Source: an uncultured virus (IMG/VR IMGVR_UViG_3300032180_000385)
Lineage: Duplodnaviria; Heunggongvirae; Uroviricota; Caudoviricetes
Strand: one strand, 5' to 3'
DNA: 64,000 nt
Virus record (IMG/VR): IMGVR_UViG_3300032180_000385
Coordinates: 1 to 64,000 of that record
This document shows positions 1 through 50,730 of this stretch, piece by piece. The translations under genes were made by a program, and so were the position numbers. A model generated the notes under the pieces. It made no database searches. It saw only the letters and a program-made list of their open reading frames with translations, and was not told the origin of the DNA. Numbering within the stretch: position 1 is the first letter of the stretch; each line of letters opens with the position of its first letter.

Positions 1-969
1 ATGGCTAAACTTCCGGCGAAGGCACTCGGAATCTACTGGCCGAGCTGGCAGGCGCCAGCCCTGTCCCGCATCCCGGCCGCGTACAACGTGGTCTACCTGT
101 TCGCGGCTGTTAACAGCGGCAGCAGCGGCGCGATCACGTGGGATCAGTCAGTGGAGAGCGCAACCCAGCTCAAGACCGACATCGCAGCTGTCCGAGCGGC
201 CGGGCGATGCGTGATGATGAGCGTGGGCGGTGGCGGGGTGCCCATCCAGCTCAGCACTACGTCGCAGGCGAACTCGTTCGTATCCAGCTTTGATCAGATT
301 TACACCGCGCTCGGCGGGGTGGACGGGGTGGACTGGGACCTGGAATCACAGGCCACTTTTACCGTGTCCGCCGTGGTCGTCGCGTCGCAGCAGCTCAAAG
401 CGAAATACGGTGCCAGCTTCGCGGTCACGTACTGCCCCGCACCATGGGACAGCACCGCTCGTGCTCTTACCGCTTCGTTGCACAGCGCTGGAGTACTAGA
501 CCTGGTATCTCCGCAGTACTACGACCTGTCCGGGCTCTCCGGCGAAACTGCCAAGATTTCCAACCTGGTATCCAGCATCGAAAACTCGTGGCTTCCGCAA
601 GTCGGCGGCGATGCCAGCAAGATCGGGTTCGGCTACGGTATCGCCAGCGTGGCAGGCGGCGAGACCATGACACAGGCGTCTGCGGTGACGTGTTGGAATA
701 CCCTGGTGGCCAAGTACCCGACGCTGCGCGGGATATTTGCGTGGGAGGCTAACGGAGACCTAGCGCAGAACTGGGCATTCGAGACAACCTTCGCACCGCT
801 CGTCATCGGAACCTCACCGCCACCGCCTCCGCCGCCCCCTCCGCCGCCGGGGACGTACACCGTCAAGACGGGGGACACGTGGTCTGGCATCGCTACCGCG
901 AACGGCCTCACGCTGACCGCTCTTATGCAGGCGAATCCGCCGGTGCCGGGGCAGGTTATCAAACTCTGA
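1..969 (+). CDS. GH18 chitinase-like glycoside hydrolase with poly-Pro linker and C-terminal LysM
   Basis: DGVDWDLE matches the GH18 catalytic DxxDxDxE motif; MSVGG and PQYY motifs; P12 linker; YTVKTGDTWSGIA LysM. Confidence 0.85.
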   Translation: MAKLPAKALGIYWPSWQAPALSRIPAAYNVVYLFAAVNSGSSGAITWDQSVESATQLKTDIAAVRAAGRCVMMSVGGGGVPIQLSTTSQANSFVSSFDQIYTALGGVDGVDWDLESQATFTVSAVVVASQQLKAKYGASFAVTYCPAPWDSTARALTASLHSAGVLDLVSPQYYDLSGLSGETAKISNLVSSIENSWLPQVGGDASKIGFGYGIASVAGGETMTQASAVTCWNTLVAKYPTLRGIFAWEANGDLAQNWAFETTFAPLVIGTSPPPPPPPPPPPGTYTVKTGDTWSGIATANGLTLTALMQANPPVPGQVIKL

Positions 970-2229
970 GTAGAGAGAAAATCGGGGGAAACATCATGAA
1001 AATGTCGCGCTGGGGTACTGTCATCCTTGAAACTACCCTGGCAGCCCTGGTTACCGGCGCAGCTTGGCAGGCAGCCAGCTCCCCCGCAGGATCTCCTCCC
1101 CAGCACGCTGTTCATCAGCCCTATCAGCAAGACTGGCTGGGTAGCCCTTGTCCTCCGACTCATCCCGACTGCCTGGTTTACCATCACGGAGGTTAACACC
1201 ATGAAAAGGTTCTTCCCGCGGCGGCAGCCATCACACGAGCATGACCTGCATGTCACCGGGATCCAGGCGCCGCACGCCCGGCTGTACTCCGTGCTGCTGT
1301 TCGGCTGCCGAACCTGCACGCACACCGAAACAGTACCGCTGGACGGCGACTGGAGCATCGAGCAGCTTGCCCGGCTGCGCAGCGATGACAACGGCAAGCT
1401 GTACGACCCCGGACCGGACCCCGCAGAAAGCACGGAGCAAGATGATGGTGCTTAAGAAGTACTTCTGCGACTGCGGGCACGCACCTGAAACGCACCAGCA
1501 CTGGCGATCCGGCACGGCGTGCGCGACCTGCTCCTGCCGCTACCTGTGCCAGCCCTGGGTCAACCCGCTCGCGCTGCTCGTCGGCCGGTGGCAGGTACGG
1601 CGGCTGACCAGGATTTCCTCTGTGGAGAAGCGGCGGATCCCTCATGGCGGATAAACCCCCGTACACCGGCCGGGACCTGGAGATGTTCAGCGCCGGGTAC
1701 ACCACTGCGCTGCGCGACATCCGGCTGATGCACGACATTCTCCGGAACGACGAACGGCTGATGAAGTGGATTTTCGCCCAGATCAAGACGCATGAGGATC
1801 TTTCCGTTACAGCCGGGCGTACCGTAGAGAGTAACGAAGGCGATGAGGCCACATGACTACCCCCGGTAAGTCCGAACATGAGTTCAGCGTCGATTTCCAG
1901 TGCCGGCACAGCGCTGAGGAGCTGCCCGACGACCGCACCCTGCACGACCGGCAGGAATCCTGGCGGGAGTTTGCCGATCACTGTTTCGATCACGATCCGC
2001 TACCCTGGCACGCGCCATCATGACCGACCACGGTACCCTTGCCGAGCAGCTTTATACGGCCTACGGTGAAAGCTCAGACTGGCTGAACTTCCAGGAGACG
2101 CGGATGCCGCCCTGGGACGAGCTGCCGGAGAAGATTCAAGACCATTGGTGTGCAGCGGCTAGGAAAGCCGTAGAATTGCTCATCCTGCCCATGTAAGCCC
2201 GTACAGCCACAACCCAGGAGGTTCCTTCC

Positions 2230-2601: not shown

Positions 2602-2833
2602 CGACCCCCAAAACCCGCGCGACTTCGACGTCGAGATCTGGGACACCGCCTTCACCAGTGGCAAATGGCGATCAGTTGACAGTCAAATTCGGCGGTTTTT
2701 CGCTCTCCCGCTCGACGGCCTGCTTACCAAGACAGAGGCCCAGCGGCTAGCACTAGCCTGCCCCGGACGGACCAGAATCGTACGACGGATCACCGAGGTC
2801 ATCGAAGAGCACGACCCCGCAGAAGACACCTGA
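2591..2833 (+). CDS. hypothetical protein, paralog of 58290-58556
   Basis: FDVEIW...LTKTEAQRLALAC vs YDVEWF...LTLDEAKQLARAC. Confidence 0.6.
   Translation: MKDNDPQNPRDFDVEIWDTAFTSGKWRSVDSQIRRFFALPLDGLLTKTEAQRLALACPGRTRIVRRITEVIEEHDPAEDT
2814..2829 (+). repeat. left 16-bp direct repeat ACCCCGCAGAAGACAC of the TIGR-Tas-like cassette
   Basis: identical to 5246-5261. Confidence 0.9.
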
Positions 2834-2836
2834 GCC

Positions 2837-3026
2837 GGTGGCCCGGTTCATGGGTGAAACGAGAGCCAAAAGTGCTACGGCCGGGCCGCCTTTGACAACT
2901 CCACAGACTTCCCCGCGGGTCCAAGAATGCGACGACAGCCAGAAGTCATACGGCTCGCGGGGAGACAAACGAGCGGCCCGGTCCATGGTCATGACGGTAG
3001 CCACGTAGCAGACGGCCGGGCCGCTC
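2837..3026 (+). ncRNA. TIGR-like stem-loop guide array 1 (3 units)
   Basis: each unit is a GC stem enclosing t(c/t)ca-N9-cg(a/g)nagcca-N9-cgg; spacer pairs tgggtgaaa/aaagtgcta, agaatgcga/gaagtcata, tggtcatga/cgtagcaga. Confidence 0.85.
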
Positions 3027-3049
3027 CTGAACAGAAAAGGGAAAAATAA

Positions 3050-3595
3050 ATGACAGTAAAGACTAAGGCTTTCAAGACCGCTGATGAGTATATTGCCCAG
3101 CGGCTCGACGGCGGCGTTCGTGATCCGGGCGTTATCGCGAAAGAGATGCTCGGCGATCCGGATCTGCGGAGGCTGCTCGTCGCGGTGGTGCGCTCGTACG
3201 TGTCCAACAGGATCCGCAGCCGGGTGCGGGCGATCGAGAACTCGGCCGGGCGGGGGGATGAGGTCCAGGCCCATTACGATAGCCAAAGACGCCACGGCCT
3301 CATCTCCCCCTCTGGTCGGCAAGACCCCGGTCGGCCAATCAACGCCGCTTTGCACCAGCGCGACCTTCTGGGTGAGCGCCTCTCCATCCCGAATCACGGG
3401 TACGTGCTGTACGCCGACCTGACCGTGGAGATGCTGGAACTGCGCATCGAATGGCTGGAGTCGATTAACCGCGGTAACGAACGGTCGATTCGTTACTACC
3501 GCTTGCTTATCGCGGAAATTCAGGCGGCCGGCGTGCAGACCCTGGGTGAGGCGGTAGCGGCCGGCGTCGTGCTCCGCGACGAGGGAGCCGCCTAG
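3050..3595 (+). CDS. unknown 181-aa protein between arrays 1 and 2 (candidate Tas partner)
   Basis: purine-rich RBS AAAGGGAAAAATAA-ATG; ORF exactly fills the gap between the arrays. Confidence 0.75.
   Translation: MTVKTKAFKTADEYIAQRLDGGVRDPGVIAKEMLGDPDLRRLLVAVVRSYVSNRIRSRVRAIENSAGRGDEVQAHYDSQRRHGLISPSGRQDPGRPINAALHQRDLLGERLSIPNHGYVLYADLTVEMLELRIEWLESINRGNERSIRYYRLLIAEIQAAGVQTLGEAVAAGVVLRDEGAA
3252..3309 (+). ncRNA. single TIGR-like unit embedded in frame in the 3050-3595 CDS
   Basis: ggggggatgagg-tcca-ggcccatta-cgatagcca-aagacgcca-cgg-cctcatctcccc; 12-bp stem with one G-U pair. Confidence 0.8.
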
Positions 3596-3599
3596 AGCC

Positions 3600-4046
3600 G
3601 GAGCGGTCCGGTCCATCGGGTGAACGAAAGCCATGGGTCCAGCGGCCGGGTCGCTCCTTAACAACTGAACAGACTTCCCCGCAGGTCCAAAACGCCGACG
3701 ATAGCCATCGCCGTAACGGCTCGCGGAGAACAAGAACAGCCCGGTCCAAGGTGGCCACGAAAGCCATTGAATCTACGGCCGGGCTGACAACTGAACAGAC
3801 TTCCCCGCGGGTCCATTGGTGAAACGACAGCCACACTTCGAACGGCCTGCGGGGAACAAGAACAGCCGGGTCCAACCCCTTTACGACAGCCAATCACCCT
3901 ACGGCTCGGCTGCACAACTCAATAGACTTCCCCGCGGGTCCATCAGCGTGACGATAGCCAGTGAGCGAACGGCCTGCGGGGAACTAAGACGAGCGACCCG
4001 GTCCACCGTTCCTACGATAGCCATGGCTCAAACGGCCGGGTCGCCC
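3600..4046 (+). ncRNA. TIGR-like stem-loop guide array 2 (7 units)
   Basis: spacer pairs tcgggtgaa/tgggtccag, aaacgccga/tcgccgtaa, aggtggcca/ttgaatcta, ttggtgaaa/cacttcgaa, accccttta/atcacccta, tcagcgtga/gtgagcgaa, ccgttccta/tggctcaaa. Confidence 0.88.
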
Positions 4047-4092
4047 CATAACTTAATAACCATCGTTCATGAAACAGGAAAAGGTAATCACG

Positions 4093-4905
4093 ATGAGCAG
4101 GGCATGGGGTAATATCGCTGATCTGCGGATGGCAGCCGAGACGCTGGCCGACGCGAAAAAGGCCAGGATATCCGCTGATAACCGGGTGAAGCGTGGTCGG
4201 ACAGTCGGCTGCCAGCTGGAAGCAGCGGAGATCCTCGACCCGGCGAAATTCCTGGAAGAGCAATACAAGGGCGTGCTCCTTTCTCAATATCAGGCGACGG
4301 TTCCGGAGCACATCAGGAAGTGGGCGGAATGCATTCCCGGCCTGGCCAGCGGCCCGCTGTTCGCCCGCATGCTGGGGGTGATCGGCAACCCGCGGATCGC
4401 CACCCCGTACCGCCGCGAGAAAGAAGACGGCAAGGTCATCCTCGTAGCCGACGGCAAGCCGTATGAGCGCACCGTCCGCCAGCTCTGGCAGTATTGCGGC
4501 TGCGGTGACCCGCGCACCATTCCGACCCGCAGCATACTCGGTGAGAGCCCAACCCAGGAGCAGCTGCTGAGGGGCGGCCAGCGCACCACCATGCTCCCGC
4601 TGCTGTATACGTTCAGCTCGTACCTGGTGCTGCAGCACACCCGGTCGGAGGCCGTCGCTGACAGCAAGTACTACCTCACCTATGTGGGCGCGAAGGCGGA
4701 CTGCGAGCTGCTCGGGAGGGTGCACGAGTTCGAGTGCCGGAACCGGAAGCGCCCGCCGATGGGGCCGAATGGCTGCGGTACGAGCCTGCATCCAGAATGG
4801 GGTGCGCCGGGGTCACCGTGGCGGCCAGGTCACATCAACGCGCACGCTCACCGCCTCGTGTGGAAGGCTTTTCTGAAAGACTTGTGGATTATTTCCGGAG
4901 AGTGA
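4093..4905 (+). CDS. Nop-domain / IS110 C-terminal-like RNA-binding protein without a nuclease domain (TasA-like)
   Basis: N-terminal coiled coil (KARISADNR), IPGLASGPLFARMLGVIG, TVRQLWQYCG and GHINAHAHRLVWKAFLKDLW; no DEDD/RuvC or HNH domain; RBS AGGAAAAGG before ATG 4093 (alternative start 4069). Confidence 0.8.
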   Translation: MSRAWGNIADLRMAAETLADAKKARISADNRVKRGRTVGCQLEAAEILDPAKFLEEQYKGVLLSQYQATVPEHIRKWAECIPGLASGPLFARMLGVIGNPRIATPYRREKEDGKVILVADGKPYERTVRQLWQYCGCGDPRTIPTRSILGESPTQEQLLRGGQRTTMLPLLYTFSSYLVLQHTRSEAVADSKYYLTYVGAKADCELLGRVHEFECRNRKRPPMGPNGCGTSLHPEWGAPGSPWRPGHINAHAHRLVWKAFLKDLWIISGE

Positions 4906-4913
4906 CATGAGCT

Positions 4914-5242
4914 GGGCGGCCCGGTCCAGAGCTGCAACGAAAGCCAAGATCGACACGGCCGGGCCGCCCTTTATAACTACATAAGCTTCCCCGCAGGTCC
5001 AAGCGCTCGACGATAGCCAGAAACCCAACGGCTCGCGGGGGACTAGACGGGAGTGGCTCGGTCCATCGTCATGACGATAGCCAGCCCTCGTACGGCTGGG
5101 CCGCTCCTTGACAACTACACAGATTTCCCTGCGGGTCCAAAAGGGACACGAAAGCCATGGGGAACACGGCTCGCGGGGAACAAGACGAGCGGCCCGGTCC
5201 ATTCAGGAGACGATGGCCATGGAAGGCACGGCCGGGCCGCTT
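4914..5242 (+). ncRNA. TIGR-like stem-loop guide array 3 (5 units)
   Basis: spacer pairs gagctgcaa/agatcgaca, agcgctcga/gaaacccaa, tcgtcatga/gccctcgta, aaagggaca/tggggaaca, ttcaggaga/tggaaggca. Confidence 0.88.
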
Positions 5243-5245
5243 CTT

Positions 5246-5261
5246 ACCCCGCAGAAGACAC
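5246..5261 (+). repeat. right 16-bp direct repeat ACCCCGCAGAAGACAC
   Basis: identical to 2814-2829. Confidence 0.9.
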
Positions 5262-5268
5262 GGGGCGG

Positions 5269-6120
5269 TTATGGCAGCGGGTTGTCCCACTCGCGCTCGT
5301 CGAGCAGCTGCTGCATCACCGCGGGGTTCCCAGTTGCCCCGTAGTACCGCTCGGCGAGCTTCTGCGACATCAGCGGATTTTCCTGGCCTGGCCACATCTT
5401 GACGTTTTTCCGGGCGTACACGATCGGGTGCCAGAGGTGCAGGATGTCACCTTTAAGCGTCTTGTGCTTCCCGTAGAGCGTATCGAGCGCACGCATCACA
5501 GCAACATCATCAAACCCCCAGCCCGACATGCGGCCGTCGAGTCCACCGACCCGCTCAAACGCCTCTTTAGGCAGCACGATGGCCATCGCCGCGAACCAGT
5601 GCCCGCGCCCCGGGGTGTTATCTCCGTACGGGCCGTTCTCGCTGTAGGAGCGACGCGGCGGCGGACTGGAAAAACGCAGCGGGTGAGCCGGATCTGACGA
5701 CAGCACCAGCTCGGTCGCCGTGTGCGTCATCCGGTACAGGTGCCGGTACGGAATGAGCCACAGCTTCCGGCCTTCCGCGCGAGCCTCACGGATCTCATCG
5801 GCCGCCTTAGTGATCTGAGCCCCGTACAGGTAGGCATCAGCATCCAGAACAACGTAAATGTCTCCGGTTGCCCGGCTGGCCGCGTCATTGACCGCAGCTG
5901 TTTTGGAAAATGGTACTTGACTGTTCGTGCCGACGATGATCTCCGCACCGGGTAGCTCGTGCTTCCAGTAATCGCGAAGCCAGGTCCAGCTTCGTTCCCG
6001 GTCGCTGCCCGGAGGTGCTCGGAACGGCACTAGCAGCGAGATGCCTGTACCCGGGGGAGACTGAGGCAGTGGCTTTGGCTTACGGCGAAAAAGGCGCATG
6101 ATCCAGGACAGCCAGCTCAT
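5269..6120 (-). CDS. glycosyltransferase family 2/7-like
   Basis: ISLLVPFR, FSKTAAVNDAA, DAD (DxD), GGLDGRMSGWGFDD, HLWH. Confidence 0.85.
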   Translation of the reverse strand: MSWLSWIMRLFRRKPKPLPQSPPGTGISLLVPFRAPPGSDRERSWTWLRDYWKHELPGAEIIVGTNSQVPFSKTAAVNDAASRATGDIYVVLDADAYLYGAQITKAADEIREARAEGRKLWLIPYRHLYRMTHTATELVLSSDPAHPLRFSSPPPRRSYSENGPYGDNTPGRGHWFAAMAIVLPKEAFERVGGLDGRMSGWGFDDVAVMRALDTLYGKHKTLKGDILHLWHPIVYARKNVKMWPGQENPLMSQKLAERYYGATGNPAVMQQLLDEREWDNPLP

Positions 6121-6842
6121 GTCTTCACCATCTTTCCGTAGTCCCGCATAACGTCATAGATCGCATGCTGCAAGTCCCAGACCTTGCCTTCCACCGGGCG
6201 GCCGGTCACGCCTGGCTCGAATGGCATCTCCAGCGAGGCGTGATAATCCCGCAGCTTGAACGTGCCGTGCTCGACGGGGTGCATGTTCTCCTGGGGCGGG
6301 AACTCGAACCGCCGCGGAACGCCCATCGCATCGGCGATGATCAGGCCGTGCAGCGAGCTGGTGACCAGCTTCCGGCAGGCGGAGATTTGCCGCATCACGA
6401 TGAACGGTGAAGCCAGGGGGTTCATGATCAGCGGATCATATTTCAGGAATTCCGGGCGCTGGGTCAGGTCGGGGTCGCTCCAGTGCGGCAGCAGCCCCAG
6501 CTCGTAGGCTTTCGGCATCGAGTCAATCAGCTCGGGGGCGAGCAGCGCCGGGTCCCCGGTCACGGTAGCGTCGGTGCCGGCATGCTGAGCGGTCAGCGGG
6601 CCGCGTACCGCGAGGACATTAGCCGCGAGGGGGAAGTCGTCGGTTTCCTGCAGCAGCCCGGCGCCGAGAACCGTCCCGCGCCAGGGGACCGGCATGTGGC
6701 CGAGAACGGATCCGGTAACAATGACGTCGGCGTGATCGGGAAGTGACCAGACCGGGTTGACCCCGCTAAAATGCTGGAGCAACAGTGGAGTCAGTGCGTC
6801 ACCCCAGTTGCTTGTGCCCCTCCACCAGTATGCACGAACCAT
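6117..6842 (-). CDS. polysaccharide pyruvyl transferase family protein
   Basis: NWGDAL, GSVL, AVRGPLT, GDPALL, TSSLHGLIIADAMGVP. Confidence 0.85.
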   Translation of the reverse strand: MVRAYWWRGTSNWGDALTPLLLQHFSGVNPVWSLPDHADVIVTGSVLGHMPVPWRGTVLGAGLLQETDDFPLAANVLAVRGPLTAQHAGTDATVTGDPALLAPELIDSMPKAYELGLLPHWSDPDLTQRPEFLKYDPLIMNPLASPFIVMRQISACRKLVTSSLHGLIIADAMGVPRRFEFPPQENMHPVEHGTFKLRDYHASLEMPFEPGVTGRPVEGKVWDLQHAIYDVMRDYGKMVKT

Positions 6843-7175
6843 CTGACCACCCGTCTGTTCGGCGTACCTCATACCTTAACAGCGGCGACGGCTCGCTGTC
6901 TCATGGTGTCTTAACTACGTAGGCGTTCGCGCTCGCTCGCAGACCGCCGATCCCGGTCAGGCTGCCCGACGGGGGAAGCTCGTTGCGGCTGATGCCGATG
7001 CTCTCAGCGGTCTCACCACTAGTGATCCCCCCGCCCACCGAGCCGTTGATGGTGTAAACGCCGTCAGGAGGCGCACCTGGACCTTCGGTCTGCGAGGAGA
7101 CCTGGGCCTGGCCGCCCTGGACGACGATGTGAATTGCGTAGGTCATACTGCCAGGGTACTCCGAGAGGAACGGCA

Positions 7176-7231: not shown

Positions 7232-7591
7232 TCACGGACCGACGGAGAGCCGGTACTGCTCGACGACGTTGGCCGGGATCCGGCCGCGGGCCTTGATGCC
7301 GAGCTGCTGCTTCTGCGCCCACTCGCGAACCTTGGCGGTGTCGATGACGCCGCTGTCGCTGCCGCTGCCGTTGGCTGCCTTGCGGGCACTGCCGCGGATC
7401 GTCTTGCGGGCGGTTCCGGTCGCCTTGCGGGCGTGCTCGATGTACGGCGCGAGGGCCGCACGGAATTCCTTGGCGTGCGCGGCGTTCAGGTCGATCTCGT
7501 AGTCGGTGCCGTCGAGGCTGAAAGGAACGGTGCCTTCCGCGTCCCCGCCGTCGAGGTCGTCAATAAATAGGGTGGTGATCCTCTGGGCCAT
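7232..7591 (-). CDS. lsr2: Lsr2 nucleoid-associated protein
   Basis: MAQRITTLFIDDLDG...FSLDGTDYEIDL...VREWA...RGRIP. Confidence 0.93.
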   Translation of the reverse strand: MAQRITTLFIDDLDGGDAEGTVPFSLDGTDYEIDLNAAHAKEFRAALAPYIEHARKATGTARKTIRGSARKAANGSGSDSGVIDTAKVREWAQKQQLGIKARGRIPANVVEQYRLSVGP

Positions 7592-9797: not shown

Positions 9798-9974
9798 TCA
9801 TGATGGCTGCCACGGCACGATGATCAACTGGTAGCGGCCGATCGGGATGATCCGCTGCATGTAAGCGAAATGCGTGTAGTGGACGGACAGCTTCAGGCAG
9901 GGACAGAGAACGTTAAATGTTATGTCTGACGTCGTCGCCACGTCCCCGCACCGCGGGCACTGCCAGCGGATCAC
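9798..9974 (-). CDS. Zn-ribbon microprotein ending VPWQPS
   Basis: WQCPRCG...CPC; GTGA overlap with the previous gene. Confidence 0.6.
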   Translation of the reverse strand: MIRWQCPRCGDVATTSDITFNVLCPCLKLSVHYTHFAYMQRIIPIGRYQLIIVPWQPS

Positions 9975-10150
9975 GATGGCTGCCATAGCACAATGACAAT
10001 GCGGTAGGGAGCGAGCACTTCACGCATGGTCGGGGTGGCCAGCAAATACGGGTCGCAGGCAAGACAGAAGTCAGGGATCGCAGGATAACTCGTCTTAATC
10101 CGGTGCCCGCAGACTGTGCACTCCCAGTCCCAGAGCTGGAAATCGCTCAT
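9971..10150 (-). CDS. Zn-ribbon microprotein ending VLWQPS
   Basis: WECTVCG...CLAC; ATGA overlap. Confidence 0.6.
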   Translation of the reverse strand: MSDFQLWDWECTVCGHRIKTSYPAIPDFCLACDPYLLATPTMREVLAPYRIVIVLWQPS

Positions 10151-10323
10151 GATGGCTGCCACACTACGATGACAATGCGGTAGGGAGCAAGCACTTCACG
10201 CAGGGTCGGGGTGCGCAGCCAGTACGGGTCGCAGGCAAAGCAAAATCTATAAGCCATAGGTCCCGTCGTGAGCCGGTAGCCGCAGTCTGTGCACTCCCAG
10301 TTCCGGGCAAAGAAATCGCTCAC
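10147..10323 (-). CDS. Zn-ribbon microprotein ending VVWQPS
   Basis: WECTDCG...CFAC; near-duplicate of 9971-10150. Confidence 0.6.
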   Translation of the reverse strand: MSDFFARNWECTDCGYRLTTGPMAYRFCFACDPYWLRTPTLREVLAPYRIVIVVWQPS

Positions 10324-10559
10324 GATGGCCGCCACGGTACGATTACCAAACGATACGGGTGCTCGGGTGTCAGCGGTGGCGTTCCCCACGGAATCTTCTT
10401 CATGAACGTAGTCTGCGTGAACGTTTCATAAGGATCAAACGTCTCCCAGGGCACGGGTATCTTCTGCAAGGAAGAGCAGCCGCAGACCGCTTGGCAGTAA
10501 TAACCCGGAGTAACGAACTGACTTCCGCATCTCGGGCATTCCCACAGAATATCGCTCAC
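10320..10559 (-). CDS. Zn-ribbon microprotein ending VPWRPS
   Basis: WECPRCG...CGC. Confidence 0.6.
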   Translation of the reverse strand: MSDILWECPRCGSQFVTPGYYCQAVCGCSSLQKIPVPWETFDPYETFTQTTFMKKIPWGTPPLTPEHPYRLVIVPWRPS

Positions 10560-10720
10560 GATGGCTGCCACGGCACGACTACCAGGCGAACATTTACAAG
10601 ACGCATGACTGTGAACGGAAATTCAGGGCCGAGGCAGCCGCAGACCCAGATGAGATTGAACTCAGAATTATCCGAGCCAGTTGCTTCACTCCCGCATTTC
10701 GGGCATTTCCAGATATTCAC
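10556..10720 (-). CDS. Zn-ribbon microprotein ending VPWQPS
   Basis: WKCPKCG...CGC. Confidence 0.6.
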   Translation of the reverse strand: MNIWKCPKCGSEATGSDNSEFNLIWVCGCLGPEFPFTVMRLVNVRLVVVPWQPS

Positions 10721-10724
10721 CGCG

Positions 10725-10985
10725 TTACTCCCCGACCGGCCGTCCGCCTCGCCCGGAGCTATCACAGAGCCCCATGATCAGATCGTGCATGAAAATCAGC
10801 ACCCGGCTGCCGTCATCGCGGACAATGATCGCCGCCGCGTACGGGCCGTTGCCCTTGCGTCCCGGGTGCGGACCCTCCCAGATAAACCAGCGGTGGCGGC
10901 TGACTAGGTCGTAGTCTTCGTCGTCTACTTTCGCAGTGCGAGTGTCGAGCGTACCGCGGGGGCCGTAAAGCGGGATTTCTTTCAC
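10725..10985 (-). pseudogene. truncated HNH-AP2 endonuclease (N-terminal part only)
   Basis: MKEIPLYG...VDDEDYDLVS..RW...GPYA...MH, paralogous to 10990-11514 but ends before the HNH core. Confidence 0.65.
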
Positions 10986-12353: not shown

Positions 12354-12734
12354 ATGTTCATCACAGGTGTTGATGATGACATAGTTTCATGCCGAGCCTA
12401 CGGCCACCGCTGGCCCTCGAAGAACCTGCGATCCGGTCGGAAGCTGCCCAGGGGCTTCGTTCCGCGGGCGGTTCATAATGGCAGCGTGGAGATCACCGAG
12501 ATATGCCCTGACTGCGGGAAGAAGCGGGTCACCGTGACGCTGCCTGGCGGAGCCTTCAACAAGGAGGTCATCCGGAACTACGTCGACCCGCCGAACTGGC
12601 CGGTGTTCAAGGGCGATGATCGCAAGACGCCACGGGACTTCCAGGCAGAGATGTATCGTAGGGTGAACGAAGAGCTGATGGCCGAAGCGCGCAGGAACCC
12701 GCTACCCCACGACGGGGATGCTTCGGGTGACTGA
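12354..12734 (+). CDS. hypothetical Cys/His-containing protein
   Basis: CRAYGHRW...CPDCG; RBS AAGGGGG. Confidence 0.65.
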   Translation: MFITGVDDDIVSCRAYGHRWPSKNLRSGRKLPRGFVPRAVHNGSVEITEICPDCGKKRVTVTLPGGAFNKEVIRNYVDPPNWPVFKGDDRKTPRDFQAEMYRRVNEELMAEARRNPLPHDGDASGD

Positions 12735-12819
12735 CCTTCAAGGTAGCCTGAGGAGCAGAGAATGCCCTGGCACCGCGCCAACGGCCCAGGGCTGGCCACT
12801 GCCCCCGGAGAACAGCGAC

Positions 12820-13401
12820 ATGAAAACTATACCGCTGTATGGTAAGAAGGCTGCTGGGCGTGTCGCACTAGTCGACGACGAAGACTACGAGCTAGCTATG
12901 AGGTACAGGTGGCACGTTTTTGAAAGAAAACAACCATCGGGTAACACAAATGGCCCTTATGCCTCCACCAACGTCAGAAAGCCTGACGGCTCCAAGCGTA
13001 TTATCCGCATGCATCAACTGCTCATGGGGTTTCCCGCATGCGACATAGACCACAGTAATCACAATAGTCTAGACAACCAGCGCAGTACTAATCTGCGCTT
13101 GGCCACTCGCAGCCAAAACAACGCAAATCAGATACCTCGATCAGGAAAAACTTCTGTATACAAGGGTGTTTCCTGGCATAAAGGCGCTAAAAAATGGACA
13201 GCTAATATCACTGTATACAGTAAACAGTGCTACCTCGGACTCTTCCTTAGCGAAGAAAATGCCGCCAGAGCGTACGATAAGGCTGCACTTGAGACATGGG
13301 GCGATCGAGCGCTGCTTAACTTTCGCCGGGTGAACGATGAGCTGATGGCCGAGGCGCGCAGGAACCCGCTGCCTAGCGACGAGCCTGAGGAGCCCGAATG
13401 A
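12820..13401 (+). CDS. HNH-AP2 homing endonuclease fused to a duplicate of the upstream gene C-terminus
   Basis: IDHSNHNSLDNQR.NLR, YKGVSW, AARAYD; ends RRVNDELMAEARRNPLP like 12354-12734. Confidence 0.88.
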   Translation: MKTIPLYGKKAAGRVALVDDEDYELAMRYRWHVFERKQPSGNTNGPYASTNVRKPDGSKRIIRMHQLLMGFPACDIDHSNHNSLDNQRSTNLRLATRSQNNANQIPRSGKTSVYKGVSWHKGAKKWTANITVYSKQCYLGLFLSEENAARAYDKAALETWGDRALLNFRRVNDELMAEARRNPLPSDEPEEPE

Positions 13402-33654: not shown

Positions 33655-36600
33655 TTACCACCCGCCATAATTTCCGCGGCTTGCCGCCCGATGTGCCGAT
33701 CCGGTGAGCGCTTGGCTGAAGGCCGGTCCCTGCCGGTTGACCGCCGCCGTGTTCGCGTCCATCGACGCCCGCAGGGCACGCATCTCGTTGAGACTTTCCC
33801 GCTCGTAGGCAGTCATTCCGTCAGGAGAAACCGGCCGCGACGATCTGCTGTCACCGTGCCCTCGTGGCGAGATCCAGCCGCTGCGGCTCGGGGTGAGCAT
33901 TTCCGGAGCGCCGGTCTGGTTGTTGATCAGGTTCAGGCCTGGCTGGACGAGACCGCCCTGGTCGAAACGACGGCCGTGCTCGTCTATCCCGTGAATGCCG
34001 GTTGCCTTGCCTGCCAGCTTCAGCGCCTTCGTCTGTCCCTTGTCCATGAGGAACTGCTGCACGGCAAGCTGAGCGGCATCGTAGTTAGCTTGCATGCCCG
34101 CGTACAGCCCGCCATTCTGAGTCGCGGACTTGCCCACCCAGGAGGCGGGGTTGAAGACGTTCGCCACCATCAGGTCGCCGAGTTCCGGCTGCATCGCCCA
34201 GCCGAGCGGCGTAACCGAGCCCGGTCCGGAGATCAGGTATTTTAGCATCGGGTTGGTGGTCAGCGCCCGGACGAGCTGCAGCACGGGCGTGTTCGCCGTC
34301 GGCAGCTGCAACCCAGCACCGCCGGGCAGGGCACCGAGCTTCTGCTCCAGCCCCCGCAGGACCCCTTGGTCACCGGTCACCCTGTTTCCGGCATTGAGGT
34401 AGGCCCGGAGCGCCCGCTGGTAATGCCAGTTGTCGGTTTTCCACTTTTTCGAACCCTTTCTGTCATGCCCCAGGATCCGCTGGTCTGTTTCTGCCACACC
34501 GTAAGCGATGTTCGCTGCCTTCTCCGCGGCGGCGATCTTCTTCTCTTCTGAGGAGATCTGCCGGACCAGAGCGGCCCGCTCCTGCTCGGGAATGGCGGCG
34601 AGAACCGCCTCACGGTGCTTAATCGCCAGCTGGTCTTTCCCGATCGCGAATTCGGCACCCTTGTAAAGCTTGCTGTCCCGGAAGTACCCGGCGTCGTCGT
34701 GGTGCTTGCTGTCGTTGGCCATCCCGGCGGCGGCTTTCGCTGCGGCTGCCTGATCGCGAGTCAGTTTCGCCAGCAGTCCCCGCAGGTACCTGTCGTTGCC
34801 CGGGTTCTGCTGGTACTGCGCCACCTGTTTCGCCGCAGCATTGTAAGCAGCCTGGTCGCCCTTCTCAACCTGCCCGGCATGGAACAGCGCGGCCTGCGCC
34901 TTCTGGTAATTTTTCAGCTCGAGACGGTAAGCCGGGCTGGTCTTGCTGCCCTTGAACCGAGATAGGGTGCCGCCGAGCGACTCCACATTAGCCAGCGCCG
35001 CCGCAACGGCGTCTTTTGCATGCGTCAGGGCCAGGTCGTCGCGCTGGACGGTCTGCTGCGCCTTCTGCAACGGAGTTAGCGCCATCCACGCCTTGTATGC
35101 CTTGATGTTCGCCTGCTCGGTCGCGGCGGCAAACAGCGCGTTCTGCGCCTTGACGCTGTCAGCGGAGTACGCGCCGGTCAGCCCGTGCGCCAAGTCGTAA
35201 TTCATCTTATTGCCGTAGCGAGTCTCGGCGCGCTGGTCAGCTGCCAGCGCGGCTTCCATCCCGGCTAGGGTCTGCTTCGGGGTTTTCGGCTTCGGTTTCT
35301 GGCCTGGTTTTCTGTTCCGCTGATGCCCCCCGTGGCCGCCGCTCATGCCGGGGATGCCCAGCCGCTCGCCAACCGTGAGAAGGTTCGGGTTCCCGCCAAT
35401 CACCGAGCGGTTGGCGTCCCAGATCTCCGCCCAGTCACCCGCGTTACCGAGGAACCGCGCCGCGATGCCAGAGAGCGTGTCACCCGCCTTCACGTTATAG
35501 ACTAGGCCACCCTTACTCTTCATGAAACTAGCCGCGAGTGATAGTCCGGTAGAGTGCACGTCATTAATGCCATACCGTTCGACACCCTTACCCCAAAGAT
35601 TAGCTGCCTCTAGTACTGACGTTGTTGATTTCATCTGACTGATAACTCCCTGATCGCCAGATGAATTGACGAATTCTATAATGGCGGGAAGCTGCGTTTT
35701 CATTCCGCCCTTAAAGGCAGCATCAGAGATAGTACCCGCCGGCGTCCAGCCAATGAGCCCTCGTCCGCCAGTGCCAGCAGCAAACGGGTTCCAGTTCGAC
35801 TCTCCCCAAATTGATGCCGTAGCGCCAGCAGCAGCGAACTTTTGTCCGCCGAACAAATTTGTCAGCAGATAGTTATACAGCTCCCTGCCGTTAGCCATTT
35901 CCGAGCCAGTAGCACCGCCCGCCGGGCCGGTCCCAACTCCGCCTGCCAGCGCCGACGCTCCGGCCTTCGCGATGTGCGCAACCGCCTCTTGCGCTAGCTT
36001 GGGCGGCATGCCGCTCAGAATCCCGGCCAGGTTGCGCGTGCCGGTACCTTTCGCCGGATTACCGGTACCTTTCAGCAGGTCAACGACGGCCTTCGCGTTT
36101 CCGGCACTCGTTTGCAGCAGCAGATCGGTACCGACAGCGGAGAGCTTGCCCAGCGCGGAGGGATCCGGCCCGGTCGGAACGGTACTCACGCCGCCGCTGG
36201 CCGCGACGGACCCGCCCATGTTCGTTGGAGTCTGCTTCGTGCCCAGGCTCTTTAGAAATGACCAGAACTCTGCGCCCCCTGCGGTCAGTCCGCCGCCCTG
36301 GGTCAGCGGATGGGTGCCGGAAGGATCAGCAAAGCCAGTTTCTATCGAGCTGCCATTCATCACGCCGATAACCTGACCGGCAGTGAGGCTTCCGCCTACT
36401 TTGAGACCGGGTACCAGCGGAACACCTTCAGCAAGATAAACAACACTGCCAGCCTTAGGACCGTCATTCAGACGGTAGGTGAAGAAGGTGCCCGGACTTG
36501 GTCCAGCGGGCGGACCCCAGCCGCCTTCTGATGTGCGGAGAATAGTTCCGTTACCAATAGCGAGCACCGGACCTGCACCGGTGAAGTCGACTCCTTGGTC

Positions 36601-39600
36601 AATCCTTGAACTTCCGGCACTTGAGGGAATCGGGTTAACATAGCCACCACCGACCACACCGCCCTTGGCGAACCCCGGAACGCCCATCGCCTTCAGCGCG
36701 CTTGCGTGCTTCCGGACGGTCATCTTGTCAACGACGGCTTCGCCGGGCTCGAGAAGCGCGGGTACGGAGTCGCCGCCGCCGAAGCCGTCGAGTCGGCCAC
36801 CGCGGGCCATCGTAGCAATCTTCGGGATGCTGCCCGAGACGCTTGCCCACGAGCCAATCGAGTTGATGCCAGTCACCAGGTTGTTCAGCCCGCCGATCGA
36901 CGTGTTAACGGGAGGCTTGATGACACTGGTCAGGCGCCCCCAGGCCCCGCCGACGTTGCTGACTCCGGTGGCGAATGCCTGCGGCACCTGGCTCGTGTAG
37001 ATGGTGGTCATGGTGCTCAGGAACGGGCTCTTCTGCCAGGCGAGGTGACCGGTCATGATGCCGCGCACCGGCGTGTCGTACTGCGTCGAAGACGTTTTCG
37101 CTGATGCGTTGTAGACGCCCGGTATCGCCTGGGTGTACAGGTTGCTGATACCGGTGCCGAAGGTGCCCTGCTGCCAGTTCAGGTGCTGAGCCATCGTTGT
37201 GCGGACCGGCTTGTCATACCTGGACGAGGCAGCCTGCGCGCTGTTGTCGTAGACCGCTGGCAGCGCCTTGGTGTAGAGCTTGTCCATAGCGGTGCCGAAC
37301 GTATTCTGCTGCCAGCCGAGATGACCGGTCAGCGTCTTCTGCACTGGCTTGGCAAACTTATCGCGAGTGCTTGCGGCTGACTTGTCGAGGCTGGCGGGGA
37401 GATCCTTGGTGAACACCCTGCTCAGTCCGTTACTGAACTGTCCCCTGACAAAACCTAGCGCGTCATTCAGGTTCTTTTTCACGGACTTGCCGAGCTTGCC
37501 CGTGCCCCCGTCACCGAGTTCGGCATGCTTAGCGCTACCACCACCGGTGCTTGTCAGCGTAATTGCATGCGCGGGATGACCCGCTCCGCCGCCACCAACC
37601 GATCCGCCGGTCGCATACTTGTTGAGCCCGTCCAGGAATCCCGGTCCGTACATCTTCTTCAGGTGCGCGGCAGCGGTCTTGGTGAGCACGAACTCGCCGG
37701 GGGTGAGCATGGCCGGAACGGTATCACCGTGTCCGGTGCCGCCGATGTGACCGCCCTTAGCGTGACCCGGCAGGCCGTACATCAACGCATTGAGTCCCGC
37801 CGCGCCAAGCTTTCCGAGGTGCATGGTATCCGGAACGAGGGTGATCGGGATCCTGAGGGGAGGTGGCTGCTGCACCGTTGGCTTGATGGGCGGCGGCTGC
37901 TGCACCTGCGGCTTGATCAGCGTTGAGTTGATAATGGCGATTTGGTTACTGTTCAACCCGAGATGATGTAGTAGGGCATCAACTTGTCCGGGATCACTGC
38001 CAGGCTTGATCTTCAGCTTATTAACGTCCGCTATCTGCGTGGAATTCAGCCCGATAAGTCCCAGCATTTTGTTCACGTCACGCGGATCACTGCCGGGGTG
38101 AATCTTCAGCGCGTTTACTTCGTTGATCTTATGCTGGTTCAACTTGAGCCCTTGCAGAAGACCGGTAAGTCCCGCCCGCGCAATAGCCGAGCTGAGCTTG
38201 ACAGATGGCGGAACCGCATGAATCTTTCCGGTAAGATCCTTTACACTGGCTGTGGCTTGATTAATCGGGACGTGCGCGTCTGTCAGGATTTTGATGAGCT
38301 TTCGCTGATTAGTGCCAATCGCGGTCTTGTTGTTACTAGCAACAGCCTGCGTCAGGTTATCAATGACAGCTTTCGCCTTTGGCGTCGTGGCGACCATGTC
38401 CTTGGTGTACTCAACCGCCTGTGCTTGAGAATGCTGCTGGTCCTGGATGACACCTGTGTACTTAGAAACCGACGCGGTCGCCTGCGCCTGAGTAGAAAGC
38501 CCGTCCTTCACGAGTGAATTGGCCAGCGCTGTCCGGTCAGCAACTAGCTTCTGTGCGGAAGCGTTGTTGTTCAGGTCCCGCGTGTAGGTGACAAGCGCCC
38601 TGCCGATGTCCGGTGGCGTGCCCGTCGTGCCCGGCTTGGTGATGTCGGCGTACCCCGCAGCAAGATTGACCGGACTCCTGCCCCCGCCCGGTGGCGTGCT
38701 GTACATGTCCCCCTTCGGACCTCGTGCGGGGACATAACCCGCCGGTGATGTGAATCCAGGATGAGGAGGCTGATCAACCGCAGGACGGCCCCGGCTGTCA
38801 GTCGGCGGAACATAACCGCCTCGGGTCACGTGCCCCGGCTGATTAGGCTTCGGTGGCGCTGGCTTGGGCGTCGTCGCAGTAGTGATTGTTGCTGCAGCCG
38901 TTGTCGCCGCTCCCGTCGTTATCCCCGCCGCAGTTGTCGCCGCCCCCGTTGTCGTGCCCGCTGCAGTCGTTGCTGCTCCCGTAAGTGCCGCTCCTGCCTT
39001 ATTCGCCGCCGTATTTACCGCAGATACTCCGGCATTGTTCAGCCTGTTCTGAGCATTTTGGGCAGCAGCCTGAGCGTTCGCGGCAGCAAGAAGCTGCGCC
39101 TGGGTAGCCTTGTGCTGGCCGTACACCTTGTTCAGGTTCGTCATCTGAGCGACAGCCCCGGCCTGAGCATTATTCAGGGTCTTGTGTGCGGCGGCGAGCT
39201 GCGCGGAGGTAGCCGTACCGCTGGCCAGAAGTTTGTTCAGGTTCAGCTGGGCCGCAGCCGCCGACGCGTTGGCTCCCGTCAGGCCGCTCTGTGCTGCTTT
39301 TTTCTGCGCTGTTGTTGCCGGTCCCTGTGCCATCAAAGCGGTCAGCTTGTTCGTCGCCGCAGTTAGCTTGTTCTGCGCGTAAATCCCCGCGAGGATGGAG
39401 GCCCCGGTGACCAGTGGAGTGCCGCTCGCGCCCGTAGCCGCAGGAGAGACTGCCTTCGCCGCCTTCGCAGGAGAGACGCCCGCTTTTTTCTGCGCTGCCG
39501 CGATTGAAGCAGGTGTAGCACTGTACGTCCCCGCCGGAACTGTAACTCCCGGCGCACCGAACTGATCGAAAACCGAACCGCCAGCTGCGAACTTATTCAT

Positions 39601-42600
39601 TTTATGCAGGACGTCCGGCCCAAATTTATTCTCTAGCTTCTTCCGGGCATTCTTGTTGATCACGAACTCGCCGGGAGTCAGCAGCGCTGGCACTGTATCG
39701 CCACTGCCGCTACCGGGAACATGACCGCCCTTAGCGTAAGTAAATTCGAAGCTCAGGCCGAACGGAAGCGAAACGTGGACATGATGGCCGGTAAGCGCAT
39801 TGTTAATAACATTGAAGAGAGTATTGCCGAGACCCGCGAGCCCGCTGATAGCCTCATCCCAGAGGTGCGCGGCCTCATGGCGCATCCCGTCGAAGATGAC
39901 CGCGCCTTCCTGAAGGGCGGTGCTCACCAGCCCGCTGAGCCCGCTGATCGCCTCGTCCCAGAGATGGGCACCTTCATGACGCATCCCGTCGAAGATGACC
40001 GCGCCTTCCTGGATAGCGTTGTTCACCAGCCCGCTGAGCCCGCTGATCGCCTCGTCCCAGAGATGGGCACCTTCATGACGCATCCCGTCGAAGATGACCG
40101 CGCCTTCCTGGATAGCCCTGTTCACGAGGCCGTTGAGCCCGCTGATCGCGTCGTCCCAGAGATGTGCGCCCTCGTGCCGCGCTCCGTCGAAGACCACGGC
40201 CATCTCGTGCGGGAAAGAGTCACCGATCGCGTGCACGAACCGGTTATGGAACCCCTGGGCGATGATGCTCCAGAAACCGTCGAACAGCTTCAGCGTGTTG
40301 GACAGGAATCCCTTCAGGTCGCTGCCCTTGCTCCCGACGAAGAAATCGTAGATCTTGTCGGCGACGTCGTGCTGGAATCCAGTGAAGACCCCAGCCCACG
40401 CCGTATGGAACACTCCGCCGATCGTTTTGCTTGAACTGCCCAGGGCTCCGACGACCGAGTTCGGGTCACGCGGACCGCCCTGCCCGGAATCTGACGTCCG
40501 GTGACCGGTAAAGAACCCTGTCACGGCATTGGCACCGCCAACAGAGATATTCGCCGCGCCCTGCCTAGTGAACAGCAGGTTGGCGATCGGCTGGAACCAG
40601 CCGGGGACCGTTTTGTTGTACGTTGCCAAGTTAGACGCCTGCGTTGGCTTGCCCACCACAGCATTGCTGACGCGACCGAGCACCTGACCGATGATCGCGG
40701 CGATAAGTGCAGTCCCGCCCGCGCCCCGCAGCAGCCCTTCCCCGCCCGCTCCTTCAGCTCCCCCGCCTGCCTTGCCGAACAAGCCCTTGAACCAGGTGCC
40801 AAACCGGGAGAAGAAGCCACCGGCCGCCAGCTCGCCGCCCTGCACGACATCGGATGTGCCGCGGGCACCGGGGATGCCAGTGGGCGGGCCGAACTTGCCC
40901 CCAGTCGCTGCTCCGGCTGTTTCTTCAGTCGCAACAGTCGCTCCGCCCGAAACCAGCGCTTCCCTGATCATAGCTGCGGCACTAGTGCCTCCTTCCTCGA
41001 ACGCCGTTCTCATCAGGGCAGCTGCGTTTGAACCATCAACTTTCCCGCCGAGAAGACCACCGGTAAGCCTACCCAGAAGACTGCTACCGCTGAGAGCTTT
41101 GAAAAGGCTAGTAACACCAGTGAATTTCAGCAGTGCAATACCAGCAAGCGTGACCGCGATGCTCTCCAGAAATAGTTTGCCAGCCGTGTTCTTACTGATG
41201 TCCTTGACCCAGCCAGCGAAAAGGTTCAGCCCGTGCATAAGCGGAATGCCAACAACATCGATGATCTGCTTCAGGTTAAGCCGCAGGCTCTGGATCGTAT
41301 CCGAAAAGCTGCTGGTGCCTGGTTTGGCGGCAGTCGTTGCCTTTCCCAGGTTCAGCGTGTAATTTGCCAGGTCATTAACGTACTTCGCGGCGTCCGGCCC
41401 GTAGATGCCTACTGATTTCAGGTCGGCGAGAAGCTGTACGCGATCCTTGCTGGCTGCGGCCTTATTGCCTTTTCCAAGGTCCGTAGTAAACTTAGCAAGA
41501 GCTGTCTGCACCTTACCGGTACTGCCAACGAGGGCCTGCTGCGCCGGAGTCAGGTCGGATTGCAAGGTATGCGCGAGCGCGGCGGCCTTGCCCGTCAGGT
41601 TGCTGTTGCCGATGGTGACCGCGTTCTGATTCCCCTGAAGTTTAGTCAGGCTGCCACCCATCTGGCTGATCCAGTTCGTCGCCTGCTGGAAGGTAGTTAC
41701 GTACGGAGCGGCCCGTTGCACCCAGGAAACTACCTCAGCTTGCCAGGTCTTGTTGTTTCCGGCGGCCGTAACCATCGCCGCACCCGTATCAGCGATAGAA
41801 CTCGTCAACTGTGGACCGGAGGCTCCTGCCTTCATGTTGGCGTCGACGAGAGAGTTAGCGTTGGTCAACAGCGACTGAAAATCAGTGTTCACTGTGTCGT
41901 AGGTGCTCGTGCCAGACGCAATGTCCGTGTTGAAAGTCTTCATGCTCTGGCCGAAGGTAGCCATCGACGTCTGGGTGCCAGTAACGATGCCGTACCAAGT
42001 GTCCCAGGCGCTCGTCAAGTTGTTAATCGCTGTCACCTGGTCGTTGGCAGTTACCGACAGCACGTTCATGTCGCTGCCGACCATGCCCATCGTCTGGCCC
42101 ATGTTCAGGTAACCGGTTACCAGGGACGCGATCATTTGCATGGAGGTAGCCCACGCTTTGTTGTCCGCATTGGTGAAATCAGATACCTTGACTCCGGCTG
42201 TCTGTGCCAACTGCATTGCTGCGGGCAGACTGATTCCGTAGAGCTTCGAAATCTGAACAAGGCGCTCGGATTCAAGGGTGAAGTCCCCGAGGAGTTGCTG
42301 ACGCGACTGGCCGAGCGTTCTCGCATCAGCGCTGCCCGACGCTACTGCCTGCCGCCATGCGGCGGTAACATTCTTCAGCGAATTTTCTGTCGTGCTGAGC
42401 ATAGTAATGGGTGTCGAATTAGCAACGGCTGCAATTTGCGCGGATGCGTACTTCTGCATGGCATCCTGTGCCTTGACAGCCCAGACAACTACGGCAGCCA
42501 GTGCTGCTGCGATAAAGATGGCACCGCTTACCGCAGCCGGACCGAGTCCTTTCAGGACTTCACCAAATCTGGCGATCCGGCCACCCAGTGCTTCAAACAT

Positions 42601-49591: not shown

Positions 49592-49966
49592 TTACATCCC
49601 CATAAAAGACCCGGGGATCTCCTCGTCCTTGCCTTCTGCTTCCCAGGGCACAAGATTGCCGTCGGCTCCCTTGCGGAACCCACTGACAGGGGCGTCCGGG
49701 TTCTCGACCACCATTCCCGCTGCCTCCTGGAAGGCTTTCAGTGCCTTCAGCGCCTCCTTCTCCGGATCGACGCGCTGGCCGATCGTTTCCTCGAACGCTT
49801 CCAGCTGGTCGGCGTCCATGCCGTCCGTGCAGATCGCGTACACCATGTTGAGCAGCTGGCGCGGGGTTAGCGCCTCGATGCCTTTTTCCGTGTGCCGGAG
49901 CCGTTCCCCGTCGAGACGCGCTGAGTGGTGGGCGGCGTAACTGAGGAGCCATCGCGCGGCTTGGTA
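49592..49966 (-). CDS. tail assembly chaperone, frameshifted C-terminal extension
   Basis: -1 frame opens at GGG CGC CCT AC (GRPT to GRPYQAARWLL...) and runs to 49592. Confidence 0.6.
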   Translation of the reverse strand, partial: YQAARWLLSYAAHHSARLDGERLRHTEKGIEALTPRQLLNMVYAICTDGMDADQLEAFEETIGQRVDPEKEALKALKAFQEAAGMVVENPDAPVSGFRKGADGNLVPWEAEGKDEEIPGSFMGM

Positions 49967-50634
49967 GGGCGCCCGGAGACGATCTCCATCACCTGCGAGA
50001 TCACCGGCAGAAGCTCTTCCGCGTCAGCCTTGGTCTCGATGGCATGATTCTCGAAGGCCTGCCAGTCGCCCGTGTCGAACGACTTGCACATGGCCTCCCG
50101 GCCGGCCTTGCAGTGCTCGCAGTTGCCGCATGCCTTCGAGCCCGCATAAATGCAGTCTCGCAACATCATGTAGACCGCTCCCAGGGCGCGCGGGTCGTCG
50201 GATGACATATCCGCCGCGGACGCGTACTTGAGCAGGGGCATCAGGCCGATCTTCTCCGCGATGCGGAACTTCTTCCCGAGCAGCTCGATCGTGTCGTGGT
50301 TCTCGATGACCGCACCCTCGGTGATCATCGGCGCCCCCTCGGCCTTCGCGGCCCTGGCGTGCACGACGGCGAGATCCCGGTCGTCCTCGTTCGAGATGCC
50401 GTTCGCGGCTGCCGTAGCGGCTGCCTGAGGGGGCGTCACCGGTGCGGGCACAGAGGCGGGTGCGGAAGACTCCTCTTCCTCATCATCATCATCGTCGTAG
50501 TCGTCGACCGGAGTCGGCGTAGGGGTAGCGCGTGCGGCTGGGCTCCGGTACGCAGGAGGCGGTGTCGGGGTAGGCACATTGTCGGCTTCATTCCAGTCGA
50601 TCTCGATATCGTAATCGGCTTCCTGAGCAGGCAT
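49867..50634 (-). CDS. tail assembly chaperone
   Basis: between tail tube and tape measure; FRIAEKIGLMPLLKYA; SGRPT. Confidence 0.7.
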   Translation of the reverse strand: MPAQEADYDIEIDWNEADNVPTPTPPPAYRSPAARATPTPTPVDDYDDDDDEEEESSAPASVPAPVTPPQAAATAAANGISNEDDRDLAVVHARAAKAEGAPMITEGAVIENHDTIELLGKKFRIAEKIGLMPLLKYASAADMSSDDPRALGAVYMMLRDCIYAGSKACGNCEHCKAGREAMCKSFDTGDWQAFENHAIETKADAEELLPVISQVMEIVSGRPTKPRDGSSVTPPTTQRVSTGNGSGTRKKASRR

Positions 50635-50730
50635 TTTAACTTCTCTCTATTGTCTGATAGTGTCTGAAAGCGGTCCGGTCCACTTAGGGAACGTGAGCCA
50701 TAGATGCAACGGCCGGATCGCATTTTCTTT

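Follow-up and report, generated by a model that had tools for sequence, protein, structure and literature searches.

The 64,000-nucleotide (nt) stretch of DNA analysed here (the window), which comprises positions 1 to 64,000 of the IMG/VR record IMGVR_UViG_3300032180_000385 of an uncultured virus of the Caudoviricetes, contains a TIGR-TasA cassette bracketed by a perfect 16-base-pair (bp) direct repeat, ACCCCGCAGAAGACAC, at 2814-2829 and 5246-5261, both on the plus strand. The 2.4-kb segment between the repeats is made up of a guide array of 16 dual-spacer units, a partner gene and the gene for TasA. It is probable, if by no means certain, that the repeat is the scar of a recent insertion of this cassette in one piece through generic short-homology recombination. 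Directly observed are the repeat, the cassette anatomy, the Nop-only fold of TasA, the linkage of the partner gene, the patchy presence of the cassette, and one homologue with both a flanking repeat and a single-copy junction. Two larger records were used with the window, a virus record of 129 kb (G000) and one of 185 kb that contains the window (G001).

The repeat stands 7 nt before the first stem of the array (pairing from 2837) and 3 nt after the last (ending at 5242). The bracketing claimed in the initial annotation is thus confirmed by coordinates and stem pairing alike, and the left copy does encode the PAEDT end of the gene 2591-2833 (..DPAEDT*), as had been stated. The exact 16-mer occurs twice in total, both in the window and in the whole of G001, and the match is not extended by the flanks (16 of 60 flanking positions alike). 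A 16-nt repeat anywhere within 0.5-5 kb was found in 8 of 40 simulated genomes and is not rare alone; the evidence therefore lies in the position of the repeat at both cassette edges. Among random pairs of 50-nt windows placed 1.5-5 kb apart in this genome, none of 20,000 shared at least 14 nt, and two of 8,000 random pairs of 100-nt windows shared at least 16 nt.

Near-copies of the 16-mer, matching at 14 of 16 positions each, are present at 1418-1433 of the window and at G001:16880-16895 (minus). The two flanking copies have in common a 2-nt variant that is absent from the other copies of the motif, and are therefore copies of each other. When an empty site was assembled in silico from the left flank, one repeat and the right flank, 22 nt of it had 3 and 2 mismatches to the copies at 1418 and G001:16880, respectively, compared with 4 and 3 for the right copy in its actual surroundings; no match within 5 mismatches was obtained for the left copy or for the circle junction. 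Two matches within 3 mismatches were obtained for 1 of 400 random genomic 22-mers. Judged from these alignments, the repeat looks derived from the target, one intact phage motif having been partly duplicated on insertion.

The two-gene stem-loop TIGR-TasA cassette would thus have entered the phage recently as one piece, and the 16-bp repeat would be phage (target) sequence duplicated by the entry event. Entry was most likely a matter of ordinary recombination, of the short-homology or illegitimate kind, carried out by repair functions of the host or the phage and not by a reaction that the cassette encodes, and the cassette could be lost by deletion between the same repeats. In keeping with this, TasA has no RuvC domain, the partner alignment has no invariant residue, and a search of G001 for tyrosine and serine integrases (PF00589 and PF00239), RecT and Ku found none of them. 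It is the target origin of the repeat in this phage, the age of the event and the enzyme that we infer.

One comparison of filled and empty sites is that of mycobacteriophage Omega with LittleE and Courthouse. In Omega, an insert of about 2.2 kb, holding the partner, TasA and 11 units, is flanked by a perfect 9-bp repeat, CACTGCGAT, and a single-copy junction matching this repeat at 8 of 9 positions is present in both LittleE and Courthouse. Omega gp21 matches the TasA profile (3e-35) and has no Pfam transposase match; gp22 matches the partner profile (1e-10). In the available text of PMC3706429, the insert is called an IS110-like transposon and is credited with a duplication of 5 bp.

In Rich, compared with Acadian, the cassette is inserted at start/stop overlaps with 5 shared nt, and other genes occupy the slot in Baee and PRodriguez. 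Gain or replacement at a gene boundary, with no exact repeat, is seen for Pinto and Scowl (cluster A1) against Target and Ringer, for Peregrin against Grayson, and for Morrissey against NS-I and Gustav, so that three of the five comparisons lack an exact repeat. Unrelated genes stand in the cassette slots of other phages (Baee, PRodriguez, Marge, Gustav). Repeats of variable length and shared slots fit short-homology or end-joining capture, and phage genomes are mosaic.

Flanking repeats at other TasA loci, a survey of which had been proposed in the initial annotation, are not general. In an automated survey of the edges of 29 loci, p 0.002 was reached by the window and an array-internal match at locus L115 alone. 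Since L070 and Omega were missed in it through wrong edges, 18 loci were redone with edges set by hand, and a repeat of at least 12 nt within 100 nt of both edges was found in two of them, the window and L070. At L070 the repeat measures 12 bp, with 42 and 22 nt between it and the respective cassette edges (p 0.007); L083 has a 9-nt repeat (p 0.047). The edge repeats across loci are thus 16, 12, 9 or 5 bp long or missing, and their sequences are unrelated. They are the marks of some, probably recent, events and not a trait of the family. Three other candidate repeats were not counted: one of 15 nt near the Rich cassette is beyond the junctions that Acadian defines, an 18-nt repeat at 27275/29513 lies within coding regions and not at a cassette edge, and a 15-nt repeat at L049 is promoter-like and 790 nt past the last unit.

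Several points weigh against this reading of the repeat as the scar of a unit insertion. The 22-nt frame was picked after the other copies were known, and its gain over the right copy is 1 nt. An empty site at the repeat would lengthen the gene 2591 from 80 to 224 amino acids (aa), antisense into a glycosyltransferase gene, and a clean empty site is therefore an awkward ancestor, although the conserved domain of this gene, which has one paralogous domain within the same record, ends just before the repeat. The gene has no relative in public searches, where it matches itself alone. The right copy with its preceding bases resembles the start of the second stem type of the array (8 nt), and part of the repeat may come from the array itself. 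Courthouse and LittleE (L116 and L117) retain an orphan unit about 160 nt past the Omega junction, with no tasA in the stretch compared; its stem is that of Omega, whereas its spacers differ although identity in the rest of the region is about 95%. Because the unit is kept in both phages, their 'empty' junction may be a deletion. Relatives of this phage with an empty site were not found, either by searches with gene 2591 or by a 26-nt scan of viral contigs for the left junction, which matched the same record alone; the one sequencing run with this region gave 9 partial pieces of foreign sequence and no usable coverage. Finally, no enzyme for the proposed recombination was found. The proposal in the initial annotation that the cassette arrived or can leave as a unit is borne out indirectly by the Omega junctions, the patchy presence of the cassette among close phages and the target-like repeat.

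An explanation that we regard as rather improbable is that the repeat is a gene-boundary motif of the phage, consisting of a weak hairpin over the gene end and a ribosome-binding site, which is reused as a joint for module shuffling like PeSL in RB49, the TIGR cassette being one cargo. Related copies of the motif do occur at 1416-1440, at G001:16873-16897, on the minus strand at 7233 and, in a family of small genes, at two of the gene ends, and the copy at 1416 is at a gene end ahead of a start codon. There are further repeat-flanked genes in the genome (12687/13354 and 78835/81305), and the left edge of the A1 cassette coincides with a short motif, taken to be the stoperator, of which further copies stand at gene starts in those phages. 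However, exact copies are limited to the two at the cassette, one copy is within a coding region, the hairpin at the right copy is no better than shuffles (z -0.95), and no promoter or terminator is called at the repeat (sigma-70 scan only). Because the examples themselves served to fit the wider pattern of the motif, its null is too kind, which also counts against a boundary motif. This explanation overlaps with the favoured insertion scar, from which it differs mainly in the claim of a reused joint.

It is quite improbable that the cassette is self-mobile, TasA bending and opening a target chosen by the guides, and the insertion, with its duplication of variable length, being completed by the partner or by an enzyme borrowed from the host. 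The precise insertion in Omega with its flanking repeat, first described as a transposon (PMC3706429, available text), agrees with mobility, as do the tight repeats in the window and L070, the kinship of Tas with the C-terminal half of IS110, the conservation of the partner, and the dispersal of single units to distant sites; a possible aid of TasA to integrases was proposed by Faure et al. in the accessible part of PMC12045711. However, no guide matches a junction at the window (16 units), L070 (7), Omega (11), Rich (6) or Pinto (2), the best having 5 mismatches in 18, and insertion guided by the present guides is rejected on these five loci. The absence of any match between the repeat and a current spacer pair, noticed by eye in the initial annotation, is thereby upheld, whereas its idea that 16 nt equals two 8-nt spacer windows receives no support, the other repeats being 12, 9 and 5 nt long. 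A single tasA copy is present in 91 of 91 phage records, every A1 copy examined occupies the same slot, neither a catalytic domain nor an invariant residue is seen, and the cassette has no conserved ends.

That the repeat is incidental, a local template switch or chance match unrelated to the arrival of the cassette, is very improbable: many short duplicated patches exist in this phage and most relatives have no flanking repeat, but both copies are at most 7 nt from the outer stems and the same pattern is seen again in Omega and L070.

The features of the cassette and its surroundings are listed in Table 1. The units are arranged as three units, a 181-aa open reading frame (ORF) with one unit in frame, seven units, a 270-aa ORF and five units. 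The pattern CCA-N9-CG-N4-CCA-N9-CG inside a stem is found in all 16 units (one with TCA). Each spacer window is 9 nt long, and its final base is almost always A (33 of 34 spacers), leaving the 8 variable nt noted initially. The palindromic stem around the units was folded for four of them (z -1.8 to -4.6). The two stem types alternate strictly across 2845-5230 of the window, and the spacer A sequences are alike in several units (2845, 3610 and 3810; 2980 and 5060). Units within coding regions are also seen in Rich, LonelyBoi and Morrissey. No guide target within 1 mismatch was found in either canonical geometry in G000; in the 185 kb, 8-nt spacers with gaps of 0-4 gave one match, which was rejected because the null itself yields 0-2 (about 1 on average).

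Table 1. Features in and around the TIGR-TasA cassette (window coordinates)
Feature	Position	Strand	Remarks
Related motif copy	1416..1440	+	3' end of gene 1201-1455; 24 of 25 nt as in G001:16873-16897 (minus)
80-aa host-phage gene	2591..2833	+	Upstream of cassette
Left repeat copy	2814..2829	+	Encodes end of ORF 2591-2833 (..DPAEDT*)
Stem-loop TIGR sub-array 1, three units	2837..3026	+	
Partner gene, 181 aa	3050..3595	+	Mostly helical; homologous to PHROG 4604 members by local profile
Guide unit in frame within partner gene	3242..3319	+	Fold z -4.6; least confident region of partner model
Stem-loop TIGR sub-array 2, seven units, two alternating stem types	3600..4044	+	
TasA, Nop-domain protein without nuclease domain	4093..4905	+	270 aa (278 aa from start at 4069)
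Stem-loop TIGR sub-array 3, five units	4914..5242	+	
Right repeat copy	5246..5261	+	With next five bases, weak 5-bp hairpin; resembles motif elsewhere in phage
Orphan guide unit, cassette type	50667..50722	+	45 kb off; upstream of gene 49867-50634 (minus), near its start; no flanking repeat

The 270-aa protein has 106 relatives, and a profile of 54 of them matches TasR 9MTY (E 2e-7), the alignment beginning at TasR residue 121 and query position 19. Its structure model (predicted local distance difference test, pLDDT, 94.5) starts with coiled-coil helices, and its best Foldseek matches are TasH and TasR (E 2e-4 to 2e-3), with the IS110 recombinases IS621 and ISCro4 ranking below them. Neither the profile alignment nor the model contains an N-terminal RuvC-like DEDD domain; lacking an N-terminal nuclease, the protein is therefore assigned to TasA. 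With no RuvC domain in TasA and no Pfam match for either gene, the earlier statement that the cassette encodes no recognisable recombinase holds. When the sequence alignment alone was tested for the catalytic serine of the IS110 wedge loop, no serine in the alignment was invariant, and two nearly invariant serines are located elsewhere. The cassette fits the stem-loop TIGR class with Nop-only TasA; processing of the tigRNA and guide-dependent binding or repression would be expected here by likeness to that class, in which transcription is repressed by TasA bound to DNA through dual guides (10.64898/2026.09.09.750476, available text). Other TasA relatives (L033, L084, L086, L037, L040) have arrays resembling chains of half units (CCA-N9-CGG), outside the full-unit pattern.

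The 181-aa partner has 23 distant relatives, with no invariant column in their alignment. Its helical model (pLDDT 86) has no match in the PDB by Foldseek, a best Z of 4.5 by VIA and nothing usable in the ESM Atlas, and this lack of a match to a predicted model shows neither a new fold nor the absence of a known one. Of 56 distinct loci, 25 are too short upstream of TasA to be judged; in 22 of the other 31, which extend 1.2 kb or more in that direction, the profile detects a partner homologue no further than 1.3 kb upstream, and it does so in the ten closest loci without exception. One member of the partner profile is identical to the L088 protein, and this locus is therefore not independent. 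The pair also occurs in the cultured phages Scowl, Euphoria, Rich, Omega, Morrissey, LonelyBoi, Peregrin and prophiFSAT01-1, where it corresponds to PHROG 4604 (unknown) and PHROG 4285 ('transposase'). At L079/L097 and L080, the partner gene is downstream of tasA, after long-stem units. As a tentative and on balance unlikely suggestion, actinobacterial phages might carry a two-gene TIGR lineage whose partner is a spacer-replacement or mobility factor, by which units would be rewritten and copied to other sites and the whole cassette would insert with target duplications of variable length; the Omega 'transposon' and A1 gp71/gp72 would be its cultured examples.

The Scowl TasA has 91 matching records, 79 of them at 95% or more (duplicates included), and of the 333 records that match the Scowl region, 78 span 80% of that region. 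The two-gene TIGR variant is thus present in about 79 cluster A1 phage records. Among four A1 arrays, that of Euphoria equals that of Bethlehem, while Scowl and Pinto differ mainly in spacers with the stems kept. At these A1 loci (L100, L101, L105, L126), five-unit stem-loop arrays lie in the 340 nt that separate the partner from tasA; their stems are conserved, while the spacers have been replaced and form three sets across the four phages.

By itself, the repeat is probably an insertion scar. The wider point is that a lineage of TasA is accompanied by a conserved partner gene, is gained and lost as a unit and leaves orphan guide units behind, and that dozens of cultured phages of Mycobacterium smegmatis carry it, with conserved stems and differing spacers. 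The spread of TIGR arrays, their gain of spacers and their targets can thereby be approached with a candidate factor and in a laboratory system; all three are stated as open questions in the accessible parts of 10.64898/2026.09.09.750476 and PMC12045711, and the 2013 'IS110-like transposon' of Omega is re-read as a TIGR cassette. TIGR-TasA itself is already known, and the present loci may already be catalogued. A literature search, with subscription papers and preprint supplements outside it, gave no link of TIGR to Omega gp21, A1 phages, the partner or flanking repeats. The terms 'direct repeat' and 'actino' are absent from the available texts of PMC12045711 and 10.64898/2026.08.11.744272, and in the accessible portion of the Science supplements there is no match for Omega, Bethlehem, mycobacter or a peptide from the present TasA.

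Around the cassette, genes for a glycosyltransferase and a polysaccharide pyruvyl-transferase (5269-6872, minus) converge on it, a GH18-LysM gene is located at the start of the window (1-969, plus), and a nearby Lsr2 gene suggests an actinobacterial host. Elsewhere, an HNH-AP2 gene (12718-13401) is placed between imperfect duplications of the 3' end of the upstream gene (12687/13354), and at G000:C1:78835/81305 a repeat of 16 nt exact (about 30 nt imperfect) surrounds a 789-aa pectate-lyase-like, glycine-rich gene. Small genes that end in VVPW(Q/R)P, are often cysteine-rich and share 3' DNA make up a large family (about 14 ends), found at 9798-10765 of the window and at L127 12200-17200. The gene L127:16378-16959 (minus) is RuvC-like by eye, with no Pfam match, and has a 25-nt patch nearly identical to window 1416-1440. 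A 15.5-kb ORF at 33655-49185 (minus) is probably a very long tape-measure gene, with 99-nt internal repeats at 39881-40150.

Compared with known systems, the cassette differs from an integrative element with an att core in that G001 has no PF00589 or PF00239 integrase and the repeats are unrelated between loci, and from a DDE transposon in that the repeat length is not fixed in the family (16, 12, 9 or 5 nt, or none) and in that neither gene has a Pfam match to indicate a transposase. With the IS110/IS1111 bridge recombinases it shares the Nop/Tnp fold and the lack of visible terminal inverted repeats, no pair joining both cassette ends being present among the 25 longest of 150 inverted pairs; it differs from them in having no RuvC DEDD domain, guides that do not match target or donor junctions, and long, variable repeats. 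The PeSL shuffling and mini-circles of RB49/phi1 (PMC2839356, available text) are alike in that short repeats flank optional genes, with gain, loss and circles, whereas PeSLs are many-copy promoter-terminator cassettes and here two exact copies and a few looser ones exist, with neither element called. In the TasParB-TasA operons, as far as the accessible text of Faure et al. (PMC12045711) describes them, TasA is likewise in an operon with a second gene and has variable flanks, but the arrays are of the dual-repeat type and the partner is ParB-like, in contrast to the partner here with no Pfam or fold match. The stem-loop TIGR-TasA systems (PMC12045711; 10.64898/2026.09.09.750476) agree in the Nop-only protein, the CCA/CG boxes, the two 9-nt spacers, the stems, the sub-arrays on either side of genes and the intragenic unit. 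The present cassette differs from them in its conserved non-ParB partner and in the unit lying within the partner and not within tas; flanking direct repeats and the gain or loss of the cassette as a unit are not described in the available parts of these two sources. In the Omega 'IS110-like transposon', the guide arrays and partner went unrecognised in the accessible text of PMC3706429, and the repeat is 9 bp (reported as 5 bp) as against 16 bp here; this element with gp21, together with its A1 homologues such as Bethlehem gp71, is the same cassette as that of the window.

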